64,000 nt of DNA, from NCBI GenBank assembly GCA_045531335.1, contig JAZSDU010000053.1:7408-71407 (forward strand), in the 5' to 3' direction. Both the position numbers and the translations under genes were made by a program. This stretch comes from Clostridia bacterium. GTDB lineage: Bacteria; Bacillota; Clostridia; TANB77; CAG-508. Below the pieces are notes generated by a model that saw only the letters and a program-made list of their open reading frames with translations, was not told the DNA's origin and ran no database searches. Positions within the stretch are counted from its first letter, which is position 1; each line of letters starts with the position of its first letter. Below, piece by piece: positions 6,901 to 18,388 of the stretch.

Positions 6901-8800
6901 TGATATATCTGTTACATCAATTGCAGAAGGAAAAATATCTGCTATATTATCAAGAAGGGCTAATATGGAATCTGCATTAACAGAAGGAGATTATATTCAA
7001 TATGTAGTGATAGTAAAAAATAATACTACAGAAAGCATGAGTAACGTAAAAATAACATCACAAGTTCCAAATCAAACTAAATGGGTAGAAGATTCAGAAC
7101 ATAACCAAAATTGGGCATATGATGAAAACTCTAATAAATTAGAATATACAATAAATACTTTAGAACCTGGACAAATATTAGATATAAGATTTGAAGTAGA
7201 AGTTGAGAATATACAAAACGGTATTTGCGAAGCTACAATAAATAATACTGCAATAGCTATTTTAGAGTCAGGAGAAGAATATGAAACAAATGTATATACA
7301 AGTTATGTATTAATGCCAAAATGGGATATACACATGACATCTACTCATAATGCTACATTAAACGAAGGAGATAATGTAAAATACATTATAACAGTAACCA
7401 ATACAGGTAAAACACCATCAACTATATCTGTCCAAGATATACTACCAGATGAGATTCAATTTAGAAAAGCAACATATTATACAAATCCAGAATACAAAAT
7501 AGAAGATACAATTATTAAAAAAGAAATAAATATTTCATATCCTGTAGAAGTAGGGGAAACATTAACACTAGAAATAGAAGGTGTAACATACGATTTAGAG
7601 GATAACGTTCCAAGTAAACAAATATCAAATGTTGCAAAAATAGATTTAGGAAAGAATGAGTACCTAGAAAGTGAAACAATAACAAATACAATAATAAATG
7701 ATGTAGTAGAGCCAGAAAATCCACAAGAACCAGAAAATCCTGAAAATCCAGACGAGCCGGGTGACCCAGAGGATCCTGAACAACCACAAAAACCAAATGG
7801 AGAAACATATTCAATATCAGGTTTAGCATGGTTTGATGAAAATAAAAATGGTATAAGAGATAACCAAGAAAAAATTATTCAAGCAGTAAAAGTTATGTTA
7901 TTAGATGTAAAAGGAAACAAAGTATCAGAAACAGTTACTTCACTTACAGGAACATATAAATTTAGTGATATAGCTAAAGGAGAATATATAGTAATATTTG
8001 ATTATGATGAATCAAAATATGCAGTTGCTAAATATCAAGTAAAAGACGCAAGCAATGAAAATAACTCAGATGTAATTTCTAAACAAATAAAATTAGATGA
8101 AGAAAATATTACAGTAGGTGTAACAGATATAATAAAAGTAGAAACAGAAGATATTGTAAATATAGATATAGGTTTAATACAAAATCCAAACTTTGACTTA
8201 AGCTTAAACAAATATATATCAAAAGTAGTAGTAACAAACAAGTCAGGAACATCTACATATACATATGAAGATACACAGCTTGCAAAAGTAGAAATTTCAG
8301 CAAAACAATTAGCAGGAACAGTATTATTGGTAGAATATGAAATAGAAGTATCTAATGAAGGTGATGTAGATGGATATGTAACAGACATTATAGATTATCT
8401 TCCAAAAGAGTTAGAGTTTAATTCAGAAATGAATACAGAATGGTATTTAGGAACAGATAATTACTTACATTACATGGCATTAGATCCACAAGCAATAGAA
8501 CCAGGAAAAACAAAAAGCGTAAAATTAGTATTAACAAAAACATTAAAATCAGATAGTACAGGAACAATTGAGAATACTGCAGAAATAGCACAAAGCGCAA
8601 ATTTAGAAGGACTATTAGAAACTGATTCTACATCTAATAATAAAAAAGATGGAGAAGATGACATTTCAAAAGCAAGTTTAATTGTTTCAATTAAAACAGG
8701 TAGTCCAATGATGTATATTGGAATTGTATTAGCAAGCATGATGATTTTAGGAATAGGAATTTATATAATAGATAAAAAAATTCTGAGAGTAAGAATATAG
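3902..8800 (+). CDS. giant surface/adhesin-like protein (1632 aa) with DUF11-like repeats, a SdrD-B/Cna-B-like domain and a C-terminal membrane anchor
   Basis: N-terminal signal peptide (LLATLLVLTLTFANFALVG). Repeats such as TLYEGQIVTYEIKVRNTSTETLNNVTLDYTVP. A P/E-rich linker EPENPQEPENPENPDEPGDPEDPEQP. GLAWFDENKNGIRDNQE..TGTYKFSDIAKGEYIV. The tail is SIKTGSP + TM + DKKILRVRI. Confidence 0.85.
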   Translation: MFNFKNSNSGKIRVKLLATLLVLTLTFANFALVGSYVGEAIAAEIDLSKQTDETNSNNVKFDIYLDEVNRTVKEKTADINSQEMKLYVSISVQDGGYLNNPVIELADANFKFRDNPKLTSVKLDSIQSGKGMSAGIPIVAKNDESYNLALLNMQSQIRLTGEYIDAEGNVTEIDTTKAVKISWTTDSITADDIELNQSIVTNKIYDMGKENKRIIQTLVTLKVKDNKAPIETALIEINNPAIGVAPESVKVAGYTTKATNGKTHLEFNDGLTSQWAYNTETNLVSIVTNNEANEQNIVSWEKDCVDKYIITYVYNENAVVAPFTCDSKVTMGIHGTTNVIEKTNTLSLETLEETGEIVTLDSNITNKIYKGNMYLGEETTYETKSDLYIPYAGATYKIAIADLGDEISGLEQKSYYKTTKINKADALKVLGTGGEIEIHDYTDGKEGAEIGKILLSEQSEGDYYTFSYDTKISQIQIVFTPTVEDSIMKSTEGIIEIINEKAIEVENIEIVPEITELTTNLKLIACNLDSEQSIDANITKKVSILEPALTFDISLRENTLSTQIEDEIEITTELKAVNSSNKLFNNPTIKIELPKEVTEASLENITQVLYDDELTLNGEKVEIVTNEAGNKELVIVLEGAQTKYNTSAQNATITANLKVKANQFVADKNVEIKATCINNAQSEDNKETVESKENVKLVSKSGLITKNTITIGENVIEKINQNAVDANISENTNATISSSIINNFGENISNINIVGNIPEGVTLTNGIASKIQGIEVAYSEETNPGIDSDSWKTKITDEELAKMKSFKITLAELANGSTIDLSYSVNANIENIEINTALTNNLTIDYVINEQAKQEEIDFTLNIEEGTSSGNPTEPEAPEVPEGQKAIITIEPKTTTNTLYEGQIVTYEIKVRNTSTETLNNVTLDYTVPQQAVLTELTYAQGTDIVFTDDTTSTNKTWVIEAIKPNETVNKEVTLRIIAESKTMTNIAELRDESNNVIANDISVTSIAEGKISAILSRRANMESALTEGDYIQYVVIVKNNTTESMSNVKITSQVPNQTKWVEDSEHNQNWAYDENSNKLEYTINTLEPGQILDIRFEVEVENIQNGICEATINNTAIAILESGEEYETNVYTSYVLMPKWDIHMTSTHNATLNEGDNVKYIITVTNTGKTPSTISVQDILPDEIQFRKATYYTNPEYKIEDTIIKKEINISYPVEVGETLTLEIEGVTYDLEDNVPSKQISNVAKIDLGKNEYLESETITNTIINDVVEPENPQEPENPENPDEPGDPEDPEQPQKPNGETYSISGLAWFDENKNGIRDNQEKIIQAVKVMLLDVKGNKVSETVTSLTGTYKFSDIAKGEYIVIFDYDESKYAVAKYQVKDASNENNSDVISKQIKLDEENITVGVTDIIKVETEDIVNIDIGLIQNPNFDLSLNKYISKVVVTNKSGTSTYTYEDTQLAKVEISAKQLAGTVLLVEYEIEVSNEGDVDGYVTDIIDYLPKELEFNSEMNTEWYLGTDNYLHYMALDPQAIEPGKTKSVKLVLTKTLKSDSTGTIENTAEIAQSANLEGLLETDSTSNNKKDGEDDISKASLIVSIKTGSPMMYIGIVLASMMILGIGIYIIDKKILRVRI

Positions 8801-8816: not shown

Positions 8817-11800
8817 ATGATGAAAAAAGTATTAATATCAGTATTGATTTTTATAGTGGCGTTTCTTAGTTTAAATATTATTAGTTTAGCTGAGAGTATT
8901 TCATTAGATAAGAATATTTTTTCTAAAAACAATGTTTTATGTATAGAGATTGGTAATTGGTTCCCAGGTGGTGCATACAATGTTAAGAAATTGTCCTATA
9001 TTGAAAGTGATGATGAAAAATTGAAAGCTTTTCAAAGTGGTCTTGGATATATATTATCATATGATAATAATTATAAGAGGAATAATGAACAAGGAGCTTA
9101 TGATACATATAATGACCCTATTCAACTTGTTTTATGGCTTTACCTAGACCAAAATCAAGAACAAGCTAGAAAGTTTTTTGGAAACTATGATTATGACCTT
9201 ACAACTAATACAGATGGATATTCTTGGGAGAGAGTTGTAAAAGACGATACAAACAAAATAATTTATAGAAAAGGTACAATTTATAATGATTATGGATCAG
9301 TAACACCTAGTAAAAATGGAGATAATAACAAATTAGCTTATAATATTTATAGCGAAGCAGAAAATGCATATAATCAAAAAGATAAATATGAATTCGATAT
9401 TAATTTATATTATAATAGCGACCACCAAGCTGTAATTGAAGTAAATACAGCTGAAAAAGATGATGGAGTAGATGTAAAATTAACTTTCAAAAAACAAGAC
9501 CTTAGTAGCAAGGGTGTATCAGGTGTAAATATTACTCTATCTAAACTAAGTAATGTTTCTTCAATATCAAGCACTTCCCTTACAAGTGCAGGTACTACTG
9601 GGAACTTTGGTACAATTACAGTAACACCAACTGAAAATAATGGTACTTTTAAAATAAGAGTAACAGAAACAGAACCATCTGCATATATGGGTATAGGATA
9701 CGTAGATTTAACAGTAAACTACAATACATCAACAGGTGCAGTTACAAGTATAACGGAAAACAATACAAATGTAACAAGTAGTGGTAGCACTGTTACAATA
9801 AAAAACAGACCAGCAGTTCAAATAAAATTTAATAAACAGAATTTTAGTAGTGGAAATTTGGCAGGAGCAATTATAAGTGTAGAAAAGGGAGATAATGTAG
9901 CAAGTATAAATAAAACTACTATGACTCTTGGAACTGATACGCTTATTGTAAAACCTACAGACCCTACTAAAGATACTTTTAAAATAAAAATAAATGAGAC
10001 AACAAATCCATTTGGACATATGGGAATAGGAGAAGAAGTAACTTTAACAGTAAGTTATGATCCAACAACAGGAGAAGTAAAAAGCATAACAAGTTCTAAT
10101 GAAACATATGTACCAAGTATTTCTGGAAATGGAACTCTTGTAGTAAAAAATAAACCTAAAGTAAATTTAACTATAAATAAAACAGATAAAGAAACTGGAT
10201 TAACTATTTCTGGAGCAAAATTTGATGTAAAAATTGAGAATGTAGCATCAGTAAAAATGTCAGGATATTCAGGTAATAATGGAGTAATAAATTCTAATAA
10301 TGGAACAATTATTTTAGAAGATGTTTTAGCAGGAAAAATTGAATTTGAAGAGATTCAAGGAAATGGCAGTGCTCAAGATATAAAAATAACACTTACAGAG
10401 ACTGAAGCGCCAACAGATTATGCGATAGAAAATCCAACAACAATTATTTATATAAAACAAGATTATTCACAATATAAAGTTAATAGTGGATCTTGGAAAA
10501 ATACATCTGCTGGAATAGCAGTTCCTATAAATATTACAAACAAACCAGCAATCACTTTAAGTGGAAAGGTTTGGGAAGATGCACAAGAAAAAGATAAAGA
10601 AGCAAACGTTCCTGATGGAGAAATAGATACTTCTGAAAGAGGATTGGCAAATGTACCAGTATATGTTTGCGATTCAACTGGAACAGTTTTAAATTATAAA
10701 AATGAATTAACAGGAAATAATAAAACAGATGCAAACGGAAATTATATATTTAAAGATTTACCTAAAACAGAACAAGGTTACAAAGTAATATTTAAATATG
10801 ATGGAATAAATTATCAAGAAACAAAAGCACAAGGAGCTAAGGGTAATGATTCAAAAGCAAATGAAGTAAATAGAACATCATTTAATAGCAAGTTTAAAAC
10901 AATAATTAATGGTGGAACAGAAAGTGGAATAAAATTAGGTTATGACTATAATGAAGGTAAATCAACATTAAAATCAAATATTGATGGAACAAACCCTGCA
11001 AATGGTAATGCAACAGATTTCCAAATGACTGCACAAACAGGTGTATATAAAACTACAACAGAAAATCTACACTGTGGACTTGCAAGAAAAGAGCTTGACT
11101 TAGCTGCAGTAATGCAAGTAGATAGTACAACATTAACAATAAATGACAAAACTACAAAATATGACCATACAAAAACAGTTATAGAAAATCTAGAGGAATT
11201 AGGAATTAAGGAATTAAACTATATAAAAAATGAAGGAGAGGTAACTACATACTTAGAGTATTCAGATTATTATTACAGAATAGAAGACTATAATACAAGC
11301 AGTACAGAAATAAAGAATGAAGACCCAAGCGATATTACAACTAATGTAAAAGAACTAGATGTATATGTAACTTATAAACTAGAATTAATAAATCAAACAA
11401 TAAATAATGGAGTAACAATAAATGAATTAGCATATTACTACGATAAAAACTATATATTAGAAGGAATAGGAACTGAAATTGATGCGACAGGTAAAGTAAT
11501 AAACAATTCAACTATAAAACATGAAGCATTATCAGATGAATTAGGAGATGCATTAGGAAAAAATGCAATTAAAGTATCAGGCTTTGATGGAGAATCAGGA
11601 AGCCAGGCTGTAATAGAAACTTTATACTTCACATTTAAAGTTAATAAAACAGAAGATGGATTACCAGAAGCAATTGCAACACCAAAAGGATTAAATTGTG
11701 CAAATGTAGTAGAAATCACATCATACAGTACAACTAATTCATTAATAGATAGAGACTCAGAGCCAGGAAATTTATTAATAAAAGGAACTGAAGACGATTC

Positions 11801-13799
11801 ACCACAATCTAATGGATTAAAAATTATATTAAAAACAACAGAAAGAACAATAGAAGGAACAGTTTTTGAAGATAGTAACGAAGATAGTAACGAAGATGGT
11901 ATATTAGATGAAAATGATCAAAAAGTAGATGGTGTAATAGTACAATTAATTGAAATAAGATCAAAAGCATCAGGAGGACTAGGAGAATATATTTGGCAAC
12001 AAACAGTATCTGGAAGTAATGATGTAAAATCATTAACTAATAAAGGAACTGAGATAAGAAATTATAGTCATACAGGAGAAAATGCTGTAGATCAAGGTGA
12101 ATATAAATTCACTGGATTTGTTCCAGGAAATTACATTATAAGATATATATATGGAGATGGAACAACATATGATTTTGATGCAGAAGGAAATAAAGCAAAA
12201 TATAATGGACAAGACTATAAATCAACAAAAGACCCAAATTATCAAGAACCTTTATACAATACAGCAGAGTATGCTGATGGATCATCAGTTGCAAGAGATA
12301 ATGAAGCAAGAAGATTAGAAGTGATGGCATATTCAACAACTATAGATGCTAAGATAGGTCAAGCATTGAAAACATTTAGCAAAAACATGAAAGATTTAAC
12401 AGATGGAGAAAAAGCTGTTTTAAATAGCTATTATGACTCATTAGATAAAAACAATATAGAGGTAATATTTGCATATAATGCTTCAAAAGGAGATGCATAT
12501 GCAGGTAATCCAGTTCCAGCAACTCTTAATGAAGATGAAATATATAACTTATTAAAATACTATGTATCATATAAAACATGGATGTCTGCAGAAACATCAA
12601 TGATAAATGTACCTGTAGATACAGAAGAGACATCAATTGATACAAATTCAACACAAGTTGGAATTGAATATATAGATAGCAACGTACTATTTGAAAATAT
12701 GAACTTCGGTTTAGCATTAAGACCTAATACAAAATTAGTATTAGAAAAACACATAACAGGATTAAAAATAACACCAAGTGGAACAGGAGTACAACCAATA
12801 GTTGATGCAAGAAAAGAAATAAGTGCATATTACGACGAAGATTCTAACAATGATTCACCAACAGGAATAACAACAGGACTTGCAACAATTGAATCAACAA
12901 GAACAGAAAGAGGATTCTGGAAAGTAGAAACAGACATTGAAGAATTAGCACAAGGTGCTCAGCTAGAAGTTGAATACACATATGTAATAAGAAATGCAGG
13001 AGAAGAAAAGGATTATTTATCTAAAATATTAGTAAATGCATATGAAGGATATCAGACAAACGATGATGGCACTAGAAGTGGAGAAAAATTAGATAAATCA
13101 TATAAAGAATATTTAGAAAGCCTAGTTTATGACACAAGAGGAAAAACAAGTGCATATGGAGCTTATTTAGGACAACACTACTATACTGGAAATGTTGGAA
13201 CAACTGATGCAGAAGTATCATCAAGAGTAGAAGGACTAGAAGAAGCACTAAACAATCAATTAAAATATGATGATGCAGGAGACTACTTTGAAATAACAAA
13301 TAAAGATGACGAGGGCAAAGTTATTTCTGTTTCAAGAAATACTTATGATACAGATGGAAATCTAGTAGACAACGTAGGAAATGGAATAAAGAACATTGAA
13401 ACAGTAGTAACCGCAGTAAATGAAACTGGTTTCATGGAAACAGGGGATAAAGACCTTAGCAGAACATTAAGGCTAACAACAGTATTATCATCAGTAACTG
13501 GTGATGCAGGATACTATCCAAGTTATATTGCAGAAATAACTCAATATTCAAATGCAGCAGGTAGAAGAAATATGTATGCAGAACCAGCAGACTTAAGTTA
13601 TGTACATAGTGAAGCTACAGAAATAACAATGGAAACACATAACGAAGTAGACGAATTCTGGGGAGAACAAATCATAATTTCTAAACCAACAGGAGAAGAC
13701 AAACTTACAATATTACAAATAGCAATAATAACAATAAGTTCAGTAGCAGTAATAGGAGCAGGAATAGTGCTAATCAAAAAATTCGTATTAAAAAAATAA
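8817..13799 (+). CDS. giant surface/adhesin-like protein (1660 aa) with SpaA/Cna-B-type and SdrD-B-like domains and a C-terminal membrane anchor
   Basis: Signal peptide present. Three prealbumin-like modules (KLTFKKQDL.., IKFNKQNF.., LTINKTDKETGLTISGAKFDV..TLTETEAPTDYAI). Two SdrD-B-like modules (GKVWEDAQ..DANGNYIFKDLP; GTVFEDSNED..GEYKFTGFVPGNYIIRY). The tail is SKPTGE + TM + KKFVLKK. Confidence 0.85.
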   Translation: MMKKVLISVLIFIVAFLSLNIISLAESISLDKNIFSKNNVLCIEIGNWFPGGAYNVKKLSYIESDDEKLKAFQSGLGYILSYDNNYKRNNEQGAYDTYNDPIQLVLWLYLDQNQEQARKFFGNYDYDLTTNTDGYSWERVVKDDTNKIIYRKGTIYNDYGSVTPSKNGDNNKLAYNIYSEAENAYNQKDKYEFDINLYYNSDHQAVIEVNTAEKDDGVDVKLTFKKQDLSSKGVSGVNITLSKLSNVSSISSTSLTSAGTTGNFGTITVTPTENNGTFKIRVTETEPSAYMGIGYVDLTVNYNTSTGAVTSITENNTNVTSSGSTVTIKNRPAVQIKFNKQNFSSGNLAGAIISVEKGDNVASINKTTMTLGTDTLIVKPTDPTKDTFKIKINETTNPFGHMGIGEEVTLTVSYDPTTGEVKSITSSNETYVPSISGNGTLVVKNKPKVNLTINKTDKETGLTISGAKFDVKIENVASVKMSGYSGNNGVINSNNGTIILEDVLAGKIEFEEIQGNGSAQDIKITLTETEAPTDYAIENPTTIIYIKQDYSQYKVNSGSWKNTSAGIAVPINITNKPAITLSGKVWEDAQEKDKEANVPDGEIDTSERGLANVPVYVCDSTGTVLNYKNELTGNNKTDANGNYIFKDLPKTEQGYKVIFKYDGINYQETKAQGAKGNDSKANEVNRTSFNSKFKTIINGGTESGIKLGYDYNEGKSTLKSNIDGTNPANGNATDFQMTAQTGVYKTTTENLHCGLARKELDLAAVMQVDSTTLTINDKTTKYDHTKTVIENLEELGIKELNYIKNEGEVTTYLEYSDYYYRIEDYNTSSTEIKNEDPSDITTNVKELDVYVTYKLELINQTINNGVTINELAYYYDKNYILEGIGTEIDATGKVINNSTIKHEALSDELGDALGKNAIKVSGFDGESGSQAVIETLYFTFKVNKTEDGLPEAIATPKGLNCANVVEITSYSTTNSLIDRDSEPGNLLIKGTEDDSPQSNGLKIILKTTERTIEGTVFEDSNEDSNEDGILDENDQKVDGVIVQLIEIRSKASGGLGEYIWQQTVSGSNDVKSLTNKGTEIRNYSHTGENAVDQGEYKFTGFVPGNYIIRYIYGDGTTYDFDAEGNKAKYNGQDYKSTKDPNYQEPLYNTAEYADGSSVARDNEARRLEVMAYSTTIDAKIGQALKTFSKNMKDLTDGEKAVLNSYYDSLDKNNIEVIFAYNASKGDAYAGNPVPATLNEDEIYNLLKYYVSYKTWMSAETSMINVPVDTEETSIDTNSTQVGIEYIDSNVLFENMNFGLALRPNTKLVLEKHITGLKITPSGTGVQPIVDARKEISAYYDEDSNNDSPTGITTGLATIESTRTERGFWKVETDIEELAQGAQLEVEYTYVIRNAGEEKDYLSKILVNAYEGYQTNDDGTRSGEKLDKSYKEYLESLVYDTRGKTSAYGAYLGQHYYTGNVGTTDAEVSSRVEGLEEALNNQLKYDDAGDYFEITNKDDEGKVISVSRNTYDTDGNLVDNVGNGIKNIETVVTAVNETGFMETGDKDLSRTLRLTTVLSSVTGDAGYYPSYIAEITQYSNAAGRRNMYAEPADLSYVHSEATEITMETHNEVDEFWGEQIIISKPTGEDKLTILQIAIITISSVAVIGAGIVLIKKFVLKK

Positions 13800-13813: not shown

Positions 13814-13850
13814 TAGACTAAAGGGGACAGACCCCTTTAGTCTATTTTTT
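13814..13850 (+). terminator. family B palindrome acting as a rho-independent terminator
   Basis: (G)TAGACTAAAGGGG-ACAGA-CCCCTTTAGTCTA followed by TTTTTT. Confidence 0.75.
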
Positions 13851-14862: not shown

Positions 14863-14887
14863 AAAAAAGGGGACAGTCCCCCTTTTT
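14863..14887 (+). terminator. terminator hairpin (degenerate family B core)
   Basis: AAAAAAGGGG-ACAGT-CCCCCTTTTT. Confidence 0.65.
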
Positions 14888-15096: not shown

Positions 15097-16497
15097 ATGT
15101 CAGAGTACGAAAGTTTAAAAGAAAGATTATTTAACAATAAAAAATGCGGATGGGAAAATTTATCAGAGGAAGAGAAACAAAAAATAAATACATTTGGAGA
15201 TGAATATATATATTTCTTAAATAAAGCTAAAACTGAAAGAGAAGCAGTAGATTTTACAAAAGAAGTATTACAAAAAAATGGATTTGTTGATTTGAGAGAC
15301 AAATTAGTCTTAGAGCCAGGAGATAGAGTGTACTACGTAAACAGAGAAAAAAGTGTATATATGGCAGTAATAGGAACAGATAAACTAGAAACAGGATTAA
15401 ATATATTAGGAGCACATGTAGACTCACCAAGATTAGATTTAAAACCTAATCCTCTATATGAAGATACAGGATTTGCATATTTAAAAACACATTACTACGG
15501 AGGAATTAAAAAATATCAATGGACAACAATTCCTTTAAGTATACATGGTGTAATTGTTAAAACAAATGGAGAAAAAATAAAAGTAAATATAGGAGAAGAT
15601 GAAACAGATCCAATATTTACAATAACAGACCTTTTACCACACTTAGCTCAAGACCAAATGGATAAAAAACTAAGAGAAGGAATTTCAGGAGAAGACTTAA
15701 ACCTTCTTATAGGAAGCATTCCATATGGAGATGAAAAAATATCTGAAAGAGTAAAATTAAATATACTAAGAATATTAAATGAAAAATATGGAATTACAGA
15801 AAAAGACTTATTAAGTTCAGAAATAGAATTAGTACCTGCATTTAAAGCAAGAAGTTTAGGATTTGACAGAAGTATGGTAGCAGGATACGGTCAAGATGAT
15901 AGAGTATGTGCATATGCAGAAATAAGAGCAATGTTAAATATACACAATCCTAGAAAAACAGCAGTATGCATATTATCAGATAAAGAAGAAATAGGAAGTA
16001 TGGGTAATACTGGAATGGAATCAAATGTATTTGATACATTTATTGCAGAACTACTAAACAAAAGAGGAGAAAACAGACCTAATTTATTAGATAAAGTATT
16101 CTGTAATTCAAGAATGCTATCAGCAGATGTTGATGCTGCATTAGATCCAATATATGCATCAGTATCAGAAAAGAATAATGCATCATTCTTAGGATATGGA
16201 ATAGCATTTAACAAATATACAGGATCAAGAGGAAAATCAGGAGCATCAGATGCAAATGCAGAATATGTAGCTGAAATAAGAGCAATATTAGAAAGTAACA
16301 ATATACCATATCAAATAGGTGAACTTGGAAAAGTAGACGTAGGAGGAGGCGGAACAATTGCATATATTCTAGCAAACAAAGGAATAGATGTAATAGACTG
16401 TGGAGTACCAGTATTATCAATGCACTCACCATACGAAGTGACAAGTAAATTTGATATATACCAAGCATACAGAACATACGAAGCATTCATGAAATAG
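15097..16497 (+). CDS. M18-family aminopeptidase (aminopeptidase 1-like)
   Basis: 466 aa with GAHVDSPRLDLKP, DDRVCAY, DKEEIGS and SMHSPYE, typical of M18/M42 zinc aminopeptidases. The TAG stop is the first triplet of the family B repeat. Confidence 0.85.
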   Translation: MSEYESLKERLFNNKKCGWENLSEEEKQKINTFGDEYIYFLNKAKTEREAVDFTKEVLQKNGFVDLRDKLVLEPGDRVYYVNREKSVYMAVIGTDKLETGLNILGAHVDSPRLDLKPNPLYEDTGFAYLKTHYYGGIKKYQWTTIPLSIHGVIVKTNGEKIKVNIGEDETDPIFTITDLLPHLAQDQMDKKLREGISGEDLNLLIGSIPYGDEKISERVKLNILRILNEKYGITEKDLLSSEIELVPAFKARSLGFDRSMVAGYGQDDRVCAYAEIRAMLNIHNPRKTAVCILSDKEEIGSMGNTGMESNVFDTFIAELLNKRGENRPNLLDKVFCNSRMLSADVDAALDPIYASVSEKNNASFLGYGIAFNKYTGSRGKSGASDANAEYVAEIRAILESNNIPYQIGELGKVDVGGGGTIAYILANKGIDVIDCGVPVLSMHSPYEVTSKFDIYQAYRTYEAFMK

Positions 16498-16589
16498 ACT
16501 AAAGGGGACAGACCCCTTTAGTCTAACTAGACAAATAAATAATAATTTTAAGGGGGCAGAGACTAAAAGGGTCTGTCCCCTTTAGTCTA
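16495..16589. repeat. family B palindrome doublet upstream of the RAYT-like gene
   Basis: TAGACTAAAGGGGACAGACCCCTTTAGTCTA (16495-16525) plus AGACTAAAAGGGTCTGTCCCCTTTAGTCTA (16559-16589) in inverted loop orientation (ACAGA vs TCTGT). Confidence 0.85.
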
Positions 16590-16621
16590 TACTAAGGGCA
16601 TAATATTAAAGGAGGTAAATC

Positions 16622-17383
16622 ATGCCACGTATGACTAGAAAATTAAGTGAAACAGGATTTTATCATGTTATTATAAGAGGAGTAAATAAGGAAACTATTT
16701 TTTTAGATGATAATGATAGAAAAATGTTTTTACGCTTATTAAGAAAATATAAGGCAGAATTAGAATGTAATGTGTATGCTTATTGTTTAATGAGTAATCA
16801 TGTACATTTATTAATAGAAGATCAGAAATTTAATATTGCAGAATTAATGAAGAATATAACTTGTGTTTATGCAGGTGAATTTAATAAAAAACACAAAAGA
16901 GTAGGACATTTATTCCAAGACAGATTTAAGAGCCAAAATGTGGAGAATCAAAGTTATTTATTACGATTAATAAGATACATACATAGGAATCCAGAAAAAG
17001 CAGGAATTTGTAAAACAGAGGAATACCAGTGGAGTAGTTATAACGAAGTATTATATGGTTCAAAAATTATAGATAGAGATTTTATATTAAGTATATATAA
17101 TGATAATAAATTTTATGCGATAAATGAATTTAAAAAGCAAATGACAGGAGAGCAAGATGATATTCTTGATTCAGCATATTTAGACGAAAAAATATCAGAT
17201 ATTGAAGCAAAAAGATTAATTGAGTATTTAATAAAAACAAAACAAATTCCTGAAATAACTAGCGAAAATTTAATAAAAGTAATTGATGGAATAAGAGAAA
17301 TAAAACATATTACTAAAGAACAAATAATTAGAGTGCTTGAAATAAAAAGAAGTACATTTTATAAAATGCAAAATGAAAAATAG
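16622..17383 (+). CDS. REP-associated tyrosine transposase (RAYT)-like HUH/Y1 protein (IS200-like fold) with a C-terminal HTH extension
   Basis: FYHVIIRG, HUH motif in SNHVHLLIE, catalytic-Tyr motif LIRYIHRNP, and C-terminal ITKEQIIRVLEIKRSTFYKM. Flanked on both sides by family B palindromes. Confidence 0.85.
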   Translation: MPRMTRKLSETGFYHVIIRGVNKETIFLDDNDRKMFLRLLRKYKAELECNVYAYCLMSNHVHLLIEDQKFNIAELMKNITCVYAGEFNKKHKRVGHLFQDRFKSQNVENQSYLLRLIRYIHRNPEKAGICKTEEYQWSSYNEVLYGSKIIDRDFILSIYNDNKFYAINEFKKQMTGEQDDILDSAYLDEKISDIEAKRLIEYLIKTKQIPEITSENLIKVIDGIREIKHITKEQIIRVLEIKRSTFYKMQNEK

Positions 17384-17411
17384 ACTAAAGGGGTCTGTCC
17401 CCTTTAGTCTA
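17381..17411. repeat. family B palindrome between convergent genes
   Basis: TAGACTAAAGGGGTCTGTCCCCTTTAGTCTA. Its TAG (17381-83) and CTA (17409-11) supply the stop codons of the + and - strand genes. Confidence 0.9.
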
Positions 17412-18263
17412 CAAATTATATAAATTGCTGTCTATACATAGTTTTGCTCTTGCTGCTGTTTTTTCATCAGATGCAAGTGCGTTTTCTAAGAATTCAGGAT
17501 GTGCTATTAAGAAATTTCTCATAGTTTCATCTGGATTTTCATAGAAGTTTTTTAACATTTCAAATTGATTTTCGTTTATTATATTCATGCTAAGTGCTTT
17601 TTCAAATAAACTTGCGTCTATATTAATCATTGATAATGATTTTACATTTTCGTTTTCTAATTTTTCTTTTCCACCTTGCATTCTATCTACAACTACTGTG
17701 CTCCAAGCAATTTCTGCTTCTAAGCTTTTGATTGCAGGAATCCAAGCTCTTATATAACTAGATGCTTCTGTTATTAAGTCAGCTATATGTAATACTTTAG
17801 CTCCTTTTACTTCTGATTTATTAAGTTCTTTTTCAAAAGTGCTATCTGTTACTACCATACTTAAGTCTTTGTATATTGTAATATGTGGTTTTGAAAGTAA
17901 GTTTGCAATTATATTAGAGAAGAACCAATCTCTTCTTTCACCACCTGAAATGTAGTCAATTTCATCTACATTTATATTTTCTTTTATAAATGCAATCATT
18001 TCATTAATTACATTTTTATAAATTTCATTTTCATTATAATGGTTAAATGTTTCTTCAAATACTTTTTTAGGAAGAGTCTCCTTATTTTCTTTTTCAGAAT
18101 CAATAAATTTTAATAAATTTACTGCGTCTTGTTCACTTCCATAAAGGAAATGTGTGTTTATGTAATATGGCCCTATTTTACCAGAAGTATACCAAAATGG
18201 TTTGTTGTCTGGGCATATTCTTAAAGCATTTGTTTCAAATAAATATGATACTAAGTTACTCAT
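17409..18263 (-). CDS. phosphoribosyltransferase-like protein (possible atypical orotate PRTase) divergent from the pyr cluster
   Basis: FWYTSGKIGPYYIN resembles the OPRT N-terminal F.L.SG..SPYY motif. VLHIADLITEASS is a degenerate PRPP loop. GGAGG lies 5 nt before ATG 18263. Confidence 0.5.
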   Translation of the reverse strand: MSNLVSYLFETNALRICPDNKPFWYTSGKIGPYYINTHFLYGSEQDAVNLLKFIDSEKENKETLPKKVFEETFNHYNENEIYKNVINEMIAFIKENINVDEIDYISGGERRDWFFSNIIANLLSKPHITIYKDLSMVVTDSTFEKELNKSEVKGAKVLHIADLITEASSYIRAWIPAIKSLEAEIAWSTVVVDRMQGGKEKLENENVKSLSMINIDASLFEKALSMNIINENQFEMLKNFYENPDETMRNFLIAHPEFLENALASDEKTAARAKLCIDSNLYNL

Positions 18264-18388
18264 AAAAACCTCCAATAATATATTTTCTTATAAATAATAA
18301 ATCAAAAATAGAATAAAGTCAAATAAAAACCTTGAAAAAAATAGAATAAAATGATAATATTGTGAAAATGATAAAAGGAGGAAGAAAA

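Follow-up and report, generated by a model that had tools for sequence, protein, structure and literature searches.

A Y1 HUH nuclease gene between inverted copies of a dispersed, co-varying hairpin: a probable TIRtron-like unit in a Clostridia genome

The 64-kb stretch of Clostridia DNA analysed here (contig JAZSDU010000053.1, referred to throughout as the window) carries a gene for a 253-aa Y1 HUH protein between inverted copies of a palindromic hairpin, and further copies of that hairpin are dispersed through the surrounding DNA. We consider it probable that this is a TIRtron-like unit, in which a single-copy, vertically inherited gene for a TIRYT-type single-stranded DNA nuclease is accompanied by hairpins that are its likely cognate sites and that are mobilised in trans. 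TIRYTs and TIRtrons were described by Di Nocera, De Gregorio & Rocco (2013, PMC3733652) as genes resembling the REP-associated tyrosine transposases (RAYTs; REP, repetitive extragenic palindrome) which lie between terminal inverted repeats (TIRs) sharing the motif GGGGWSAS, and not beside GTAG-tagged REPs. An initial annotation of the window had read the locus as a RAYT-like gene bracketed by its probable cognate palindromes.

Results

The Y1 gene and its protein

The gene and its immediate flanks comprise the following features.

16622 to 17383, forward strand: gene for a Y1 HUH nuclease, TIRYT- or subclass-2.1-like, 253 aa, ATG start.
16799 to 16807, forward strand: codons of the HUH motif, H60-V61-H62, read from the sequence and its translation.
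16976 to 16978, forward strand: codon of the putative catalytic Tyr119 (in YIHRNP), with W137-S138-S139 following; assigned from the sequence and from conservation in 40 homologues.
16495 to 16525, forward strand: upstream hairpin 1, ACAGA loop, opening with the TAG stop codon of the peptidase M18 gene.
16559 to 16589, forward strand: upstream hairpin 2, TCTGT loop, two mismatches; forms an inverted doublet with hairpin 1.
16552 to 16560, forward strand: GGGGGCAGA motif, complementary to TCTGTCCCC of hairpin 2 except for one mismatch.
17381 to 17411, forward strand: downstream hairpin, TCTGT loop, inverted with respect to hairpin 1; provides the TAG stop of the Y1 gene and, as CTA (TAG on the reverse strand), that of the convergent gene 17409-18275.

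The open reading frame at 16622-17383 is preceded by the ribosome-binding site AAAGGAGG. The Pfam domain PF01797 (Y1_Tnp), the search proposed in the initial annotation, matches the protein with 61 bits against a cut-off of 23. The HVH and YIHRNP motifs noted there are both present, and are retained throughout an alignment of 40 homologues, in which H60, H62, Y119, N123, P124, W137 and S139 never vary and S138 almost never does. A structure predicted by AF2 from those homologues (pLDDT 89.6) was compared with the Protein Data Bank (PDB) using Foldseek; the top match was 4ER8, the E. coli TnpA_REP bound to a REP hairpin (E 8.5e-8, TMt 0.71), followed by the IS200, ISDra2 and IS608 TnpA structures. 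A phmmer search of the PDB with the full-length protein returned no match at E <= 1. The ratio of nonsynonymous to synonymous substitution rates (dN/dS) was 0.08 against the relative L004 and 0.18-0.47 for more distant pairs, and the gene is under purifying selection, with its catalytic residues intact. The 64-kb window contains no second copy or paralogue of it.

A family of hairpins around the gene

A search with the palindrome TAGACTAAAGGGG-N5-CCCCTTTAGTCTA, allowing up to three mismatches, found seven copies in the window against 0.00 expected from 100 shuffles. These 31-nt units start at 13814, 16495, 16559, 17381, 22104, 25245 and 25284. When the 13-nt apex GGGG-ACAGA/TCTGT-CCCC was used with at most one mismatch, the total rose to 10 by the addition of copies at 14869, 25797 and 44852, and nine of the ten form a cluster about the Y1 gene, from 13.8 to 25.8 kb. 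All the palindrome coordinates given by the initial annotation were correct; among its variant copies, those at 14863, 25793 and 44843 carry the apex, and the one at 46107 is merely a degenerate relative. The region 46107-46160, just past the stop of gene 44977-46110, contains the degenerate relatives GGGACAGTCCCC and GGGGACTGTCCC and then a CGACAAAATGTCG hairpin.

Since the stem is symmetric, the orientation of a copy is visible from its loop alone. The loop reads ACAGA at 16495 and TCTGT at 16559 and 17381, and the gene is therefore bracketed by inverted copies. Single copies fold as DNA at about -13.4 kcal/mol (z about -7.6). There are two REPIN-like inverted doublets, at 16495-16589 (35-nt spacer) and 25245-25314 (8-nt spacer), which fold as long hairpins (-29.9 kcal/mol and z -9.4 for 16490-16595; -35.1 kcal/mol for 25240-25320). 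Inverted doublets are also common in the relatives and metagenome matches described below. Rfam, at its gathering thresholds, recognised nothing at the hairpins, its matches in the window being two tRNAs alone (56422-56492 and 57685-57755).

The sequence GGGGGC(A/T) occurs upstream of the gene, by estimate from the flanks within about 100 nt 5' of the Y1 start codon. It is found also in L004, L005, L006, L012, L136, L138, L144, other loci included, and may be the remnant of a half-site or an operator. Whether GGGGGCA is a conserved operator was considered, but in L023 the motif is on the other strand.

The hairpin structure is maintained by compensatory changes

Co-variation was assessed on 58 distinct copies from low-GC loci, with 500 shuffles of the pairing partners and with slid partner columns as controls. 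In this set 92.4% of the stem cells were paired, compared with 78% after shuffling, and 131 cells carried a double change, compared with 46 in the shuffles. Seven of the 14 stem pairs showed changes on both sides. None of the 500 shuffles reached the observed percentage of pairing, number of double changes or covariation score, and sliding the partner columns lowered pairing to 37-67%. The four G-C pairs and most of the adjoining A-T pairs hardly vary. Thus the apex, AAAGGGG-ACAGA-CCCCTTT, is conserved, whereas substitutions in the lower stem, which differs from species to species, compensate one another, and the hairpin structure is under selection. The lower stem is of the type TAGACTAAA... 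in the window and L004, TGAAACGAAA... in L005, AAAACGAAA... in L006, AAATGGCAAAAA... in L012 and, with the loop ACAGG, TGAGGGAAAAA... in L136.

The initial annotation had regarded a GTAG tetranucleotide 5' of the hairpin as the hallmark of a RAYT-recognised REP. This does not hold for the apex hairpins. Read on the strand with the ACAGA loop, G precedes TAG in four of the seven window copies, and TAG itself belongs to the variable, base-paired outer stem, the relatives having TGAAACG, AAAACG, TGGCAAA or TGAGGGA in its place.

Gene and hairpin are linked in relatives, at one locus

The genomic context of nine further homologues, with 94, 77, 70, 55, 51, 49, 43, 42 and 37% identity to the window protein, was inspected. 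The seven closest (94-43%) all have inverted hairpins of the apex type on both sides, with the same or nearly the same apex, and in these, as in the window, the upstream loop is ACAGA and the downstream loop TCTGT. The 43% homologue is at a different locus, between inverted CGCCAGAAGGGACAGGTCCTTCTGGCG hairpins, and the 42% homologue is flanked by different inverted repeats, GGGGACGTTTCC. A clear pair of flanking hairpins was not found for the 37% homologue. The bracketing palindromes of the initial annotation are, then, inverted copies of a dispersed palindrome which co-varies with the gene between species.

All contigs examined down to 49% identity have the gene at one locus, with the order peptidase M18, the Y1 gene, a convergent phosphoribosyltransferase-like gene and pyrC-pyrF-pyrK-pyrD. 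Homologue P0035 is represented by several contigs from different samples, all at this peptidase M18 / pyr locus. Homologues are often found on contigs of about 900 bp. The one that was examined, L011, begins and ends inside the flanking hairpins, which would follow if the repeated element were the hairpins rather than the gene. The Y1 gene evolves much faster than its neighbours: the synonymous divergence (dS) from L004, where the gene is at 10001-10762, is 0.345, compared with 0.046 for peptidase M18 and 0.079 for pyrC, a ratio of 4-7, and local identity to L004 dips to 89-92% at 16800-17200. Either allele replacement or a locally raised mutation rate could account for this.

Turnover of hairpins and their placement relative to genes

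Apart from those flanking the Y1 gene, the copies in the window are as follows.

13814 to 13844, forward strand: dispersed copy, ACAGA loop, 15 nt past the stop of the surface-protein gene 8817-13799.
14864 to 14887, forward strand: variant copy with ACAGT loop and A/T-run stem, just past the stop of a Na/Ca-exchanger gene.
22104 to 22134, forward strand: dispersed copy, TCTGT loop, between the co-directional genes 21326-22099 and 22157-23065; L004 has a GTAG-type REP here in its stead.
25245 to 25314, forward strand: inverted doublet, the ends of which give the stops of the convergent genes 23793-25247 (forward) and 25312-26364 (reverse); absent in L004.
25787 to 25821, forward strand: in-frame intragenic copy within the Gate-family transporter gene 25312-26364 (reverse strand), in a variable loop (…KGDRPLF…).
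44839 to 44877, forward strand: distant copy with another outer stem (GTGAGGCAAAA...), containing the TGA stop (44842-44844) of gene 42838-44844.

Intergenic copies are thus placed at a stop codon or no more than 15 nt from one, and several supply the stop themselves. Stop codons in the outer arms are at 16495-16497, 17381-17383, 17409-17411, 25245-25247 and 25312-25314, serving both strands at convergent pairs. The stop codon follows the stem type in the relatives, being TGA in L005 and TAA in L006 and L012 (TAG in the window).

Orthologous sites differ in occupancy and in type. The site following pyrC is empty in the window and in L006 and occupied in L005, L012 and L136; the L005 copy there is of the TAGACT type, although the main type in L005 is TGAAACG. 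In the pyrK-pyrD spacer the window has one copy, L005 a doublet, L006 a variant and L004 a GTAG-type REP. The doublet past the DUF1846 gene in the window is missing from L004, which keeps TAGACT alone after the shared stop codon. The in-frame copy in the transporter gene is present also in L004 (about 20671) and, with the L005-type stem, in L005 (about 9354); L012 has at that position an unrelated, non-palindromic stretch of similar length.

The gene itself can be absent. In the metagenome contig L130, whose pyr genes are 95-97% identical in nucleotide sequence to those of L136, there is no Y1 gene at the locus; at about 7376-7428 (corresponding to 16496-17410 in the window) the peptidase M18 stop is followed by one hairpin and then by the convergent gene. 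The identity between L130 and L136 falls to 85% on the peptidase side of that hairpin.

Spread of the apex and size of the protein family

The exact 19-mer apex AAAGGGGACAGACCCCTTT was found in at least 120 metagenome stretches ranging from 25% to 73% GC. In about a third of the listed stretches the apex is present at least twice, typically in inverted doublets with 20-60 nt between the copies. By rough estimate a given 19-mer would be expected only a few times by chance in a collection of this order of size, and the number of stretches and the doublets are therefore well beyond chance. The hairpin is short in high-GC contigs (A3-4 G4 / C4 T3-4) and has a stem of 13-21 bp in those of low GC. 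A scan of genome contigs with GACTAAAGGGG-N5-CCCCTTTAGTC gave three isolated, unrelated single matches and no genome with the family.

A homologous gene is present in three among the 120 stretches listed. In L023 (64% GC) a 258-aa homologue, 39% identical to P0057, lies between inverted TGATTCAAAAGGGGACAGACCCCTTTTGAATCA copies in the same layout; the other two stretches have apex-type hairpins directly beside the homologue. The protein family is very large. At E <= 1e-3 it counts 33,738 representatives of 50%-identity clusters, and at E <= 1e-10 it counts 15,044; many are about 250 aa long and aligned end to end.

Two further arrangements were seen. In L063 (68% GC) a 53-bp unit is repeated 3.7 times in tandem at 132-325, and every unit contains the same apex hairpin in one orientation. 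In L035 an inverted hairpin pair encloses a gene for a membrane protein with an XRE-type helix-turn-helix (HTH); it was considered as a carrier of cargo and set aside, as it looks like two ordinary intergenic copies.

Which Y1 family

The profiles for the known families leave the protein outside both. It scores 68.4 bits with NCBIfam NF047646 (REP_Tyr_transpos, the RAYT family; cut-off 80) and 22.4 bits with NF033573 (IS200; cut-off 55); it does not, therefore, group with ordinary IS200 TnpA, the outcome that the initial annotation had named as telling against a RAYT-like protein. Comparison sequences for TIRYTs and RAYTs were rebuilt from Additional file 5 of PMC3733652 and compared with the window protein using BLASTP. 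The TIRYTs gave E values of about 4e-35 to 2e-20; sml_4509 was 42.6% identical over a core of 141 aa (E 4e-35), and pca_3049, gbm_2474 and dau_2153 gave 1e-32 to 1e-35. The canonical RAYTs gave 2e-13 (pfs_3939), 1e-10 and 4e-6, and E. coli TnpA_REP 0.055. The order, TIRYTs ahead of RAYTs, did not change with a profile built from the 40 homologues. The RAYT-like reading is thus half right: the protein has the Y1 class of TnpA_REP, with 4ER8 as best structural match, but it misses the RAYT cut-off and aligns far better to TIRYTs.

The likeness to TIRYTs extends to the DNA. The gene lies between inverted repeats whose apex GGGGACAG, present in both flanks, is an exact instance of GGGGWSAS. The repeats show partial or full self-complementarity, are present in moderate number and occur singly and as dimers, all of which PMC3733652 reports for some TIR families. 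The protein has the signature MPR.AR, YH...RG.N, AYCLM.NHVHLL, GHL.Q.RFKS, Y...NP, WSS, and the pattern Y...NP...WSS is also seen in the alignment of Additional file 5. In the classification of Quentin et al. (2018, PMC6006769) TIRYTs are equated with subclass 2.1 of TnpA_Y1, which has a conserved serine motif just past the catalytic Tyr region and an HTH-like C-terminal extension (Bac_DnaA_C, HTH_23 or HTH_28), and which in that analysis is accompanied by no REP-like sequences. The window protein also has a C-terminal extension, with weak HTH signals among its homologues, and is without the ...RGRPRK tail of most TIRYTs in Additional file 5. Two other differences from the described TIRYTs are that the host is Clostridia-like with about 28% GC, whereas the published examples are, by their strain codes, apparently mostly from Proteobacteria and Acidobacteria, and that the motif here is the apex of a perfect hairpin of 13-21 bp which behaves like a REP or REPIN.

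The canonical REP/RAYT pair, or REPtron (E. coli TnpA_REP/YafM, PDB 4ER8; Nunvar 2010; Ton-Hoang 2012; Corneloup 2021), shares with the locus the Y1 HUH fold with its HUH motif and one catalytic Tyr, a single-copy gene between two inverted palindromes which are also dispersed, occur as doublets and lie at the 3' ends of genes, the co-evolution of protein and repeat, and loss of the gene in some relatives. It differs in several respects. A GT(A/G)G head is not conserved below the hairpin here, the conserved determinant being the loop and upper stem and not a 5' tag, and the protein is below the NCBIfam RAYT cut-off, has marginal similarity to E. coli TnpA_REP and carries about 110 extra C-terminal residues. 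Canonical REPs typically exceed 100 copies genome-wide; the 64 kb of genome covered here hold 10 apex copies. The TnpA proteins of IS200/IS605 elements (IS608, ISDra2) have the same catalytic domain and presumably act on hairpin-containing single-stranded DNA by the same chemistry. Their elements move as units; here the locus is fixed, the gene single-copy and the score below the family cut-off, the end hairpins are identical and inverted instead of being distinct left and right hairpins in one orientation, and there is no tnpB. The Group 1 RAYTs of Bertels, Gallie & Rainey (2017, PMC5581495) are also reported from Clostridia, are mostly single-copy and have flanking 16-mers of modest abundance (about 12 per replicon), but no hairpin family is described for that group in PMC5581495.

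As both the GTAG head and the family score failed, and the features of a TIRtron that could be tested were present, the locus is classed here as a TIRtron or member of subclass 2.1. By its pairwise matches, motif and layout it appears to be a Clostridia-type example of these and not a classical GTAG-tagged REP/RAYT pair. A text search of the literature found no paper with the apex sequence, and GGGGWSAS only in Di Nocera 2013. No clostridial REPtron was found in the REP literature consulted, Bertels et al. mentioning Clostridia only in passing (Group 1), and the REPtron table of Quentin 2018 has no entries for Clostridia or Firmicutes and no GGGGAC string.

The C-terminal region

The initial annotation had also proposed a C-terminal HTH. 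The region in question is the following.

17270 to 17377, forward strand: C-terminal three-helix region (residues about 217-252), putative HTH, with helices at 217-227, 232-238 and 243-252 in the AF2 model.

The three helices are modelled, and two or three of the 40 homologues each give weak Pfam matches to HTH_7 (8e-6), HTH_23 (2e-3), HTH_24 (1e-3) and HTH_28 (0.058). The window protein itself has no Pfam HTH match at E <= 1. The isolated domain gave a mediocre model (pLDDT 70.5) for which Foldseek returned nothing below E 5.9, and no PDB entry matched a profile of the C-terminal half with E below 0.1. The proposed HTH is thus weakly supported, and both it and a DnaA-like reading of the region are tentative. 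More speculatively, the helical region may add double-strand DNA binding or autoregulation.

A second, GTAG-tagged repeat family

The hallmark looked for at the apex hairpins belongs to another family, overlooked in the initial annotation. The sequence TGTAGGGG occurs 20 times in the window against 0.47 expected, and marks a GC-rich, truly GTAG-tagged, REPIN-like family; at least 13 of the 20 sites are followed by a GC-rich hairpin of 7-8 bp with a variable stem. Six inverted doublets, which fold into long hairpins, and seven singles are listed.

Doublet 1603/1663, span 1603-1670.
Doublet 2524/2585, span 2524-2592.
Doublet 26443/26507, span 26443-26514.
Doublet 29536/29603, span 29536-29610.
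Doublet 40181/40242, span 40181-40249.
Doublet 42723/42790, span 42723-42797.
Singles at 2449, 3455, 27954, 45000, 47541, 49021 and 56247.

No copy of this family flanks the Y1 gene, and there is no canonical RAYT within the window. L004 has GTAG-type REPs at sites where the window has the apex hairpin or nothing.

Discussion

The mechanism that we envisage for the TIRtron-like unit is drawn from analogy with the IS608 and ISDra2 TnpA proteins and with E. coli TnpA_REP. The enzyme would bind the folded hairpin on single-stranded DNA, reading the loop and the G4/C4 stem, and would tell the strands apart by the loop alone. It would cut next to the hairpin by means of Tyr119 with an HUH-bound metal and then rejoin the ends, so that units consisting only of the hairpin could be excised, inserted or copied in trans and the gene would stay at its locus.

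Several observations weigh against this reading. Nine of the ten window copies lie within about 9 kb of the Y1 gene, and the hairpin-rich neighbourhood persists in L130, the relative without the gene at the locus. The raised dS against L004 is as compatible with allele replacement as with plain vertical descent. In the 58 aligned copies there is no conserved flanking base and no 5' guide or tag beside the hairpin, and without such a guide the cleavage site is not predictable; binding, cleavage site and strand preference are all things that we infer from the analogy. Published work is not directly encouraging either, as Quentin et al. (PMC6006769) found no REP-like partners for subclass 2.1 and Bertels et al. 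(PMC5581495) treat the RAYT groups without REPINs as co-opted genes of unknown function. Finally, a scan for terminator patterns from 13 to 27 kb found 22 sites where 4.1 were expected, with apex hairpins accounting for most of those listed, and conservation of the hairpin may in part reflect a function in RNA.

In the main rival explanation the Y1 protein would be a fully co-opted host factor that has ceased to move anything; it might process or resolve hairpins at stalled replication forks or at 3' ends, or regulate through its HTH, and the hairpins would spread or be maintained in other ways, for example by recombination, gene conversion or selection for termination. Such a role would explain why the locus has remained fixed over long divergence, why the gene is under purifying selection, and why the hairpins, which are terminator-like, persist where the gene is absent; single-copy RAYT groups without REPINs are treated as co-opted in published work. 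Gene conversion could be the reason that outer stems have become uniform within each species, orthologous sites included. What co-option explains less well is that orthologous sites are occupied in one species and empty in another, or carry differing stem types, since this needs insertion or replacement. It would also not call for the strict retention of the catalytic HUH and Tyr residues, and the inverted flanks are the arrangement of REPtrons and TIRtrons, the enzymes of which cut REPs in vitro (PMC8266576). On balance we regard co-option as unlikely.

That the hairpins are ordinary intrinsic terminators or stabilisers of mRNA 3' ends, adjoining the Y1 gene by coincidence, seems to us very improbable. 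They adjoin stop codons, being no further than 15 nt away, and many are followed on the ACAGA strand by a T-rich tail and were detected by the terminator scan. Terminators would not, however, keep an identical apex and loop of 13-19 nt from 25% to 73% GC. The apex flanks seven homologues down to 43% identity and that in L023, and adjoins two more; some copies form inverted doublets and one is intragenic and in frame; and at 22104 the T-tail falls on the strand that is not transcribed. A role of this kind need not compete with mobilisation in trans, and the hairpins probably also act as terminators or stabilisers of mRNA 3' ends.

Least credible of all is that 16495-17411 is an autonomous insertion sequence of the IS200/IS605 type which transposes whole: the Y1_Tnp domain, the hairpins at both ends and the homologue contigs of about 900 bp, which would be expected also from a collapsed multi-copy element, fit such an element, but all relatives examined down to 49% identity have it at one and the same locus, the window has no second copy, the protein scores 22.4 bits for IS200 (cut-off 55), a single hairpin in inverted copies makes up both ends, tnpB is absent, and the L011 contig ends inside the hairpins as if these were the repeat.

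We return to the TIRtron-like unit and what it would mean. The TIRYT / subclass-2.1 proteins are a very large family without a demonstrated substrate or function, subclass 2.1 being the second-largest Y1 subclass and having been described without a REP-like partner. The locus offers a sharply defined candidate substrate, a conserved 19-nt apex with the rest of the stem co-varying, and the relatives with and without the gene provide a natural comparison for whether the enzyme maintains the hairpins. Relative to the literature consulted, what is new is that GGGGWSAS is the apex of a true co-varying hairpin which behaves like a REP or REPIN, that the exact apex is common to very different genomes, and that the gene is kept at one locus over deep divergence, with close relatives both having and lacking it. 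The analysis also brings REP-like biology to AT-rich, Clostridia-like genomes, which the REP literature consulted covers only in passing: placement at 3' ends, stop codons supplied by the element, an in-frame copy and a second, GTAG-tagged family. As a tentative extension, it is quite conceivable that the G4-ACAGA-C4 hairpin is a general single-stranded DNA substrate of the whole TIRYT / subclass-2.1 clade. If that is true, there would be a second, GTAG-independent super-family of REP-like sequences across phyla from 25% to 73% GC, its stem lengthened in the AT-rich Clostridia, where it coexists with canonical GTAG-tagged REPINs.

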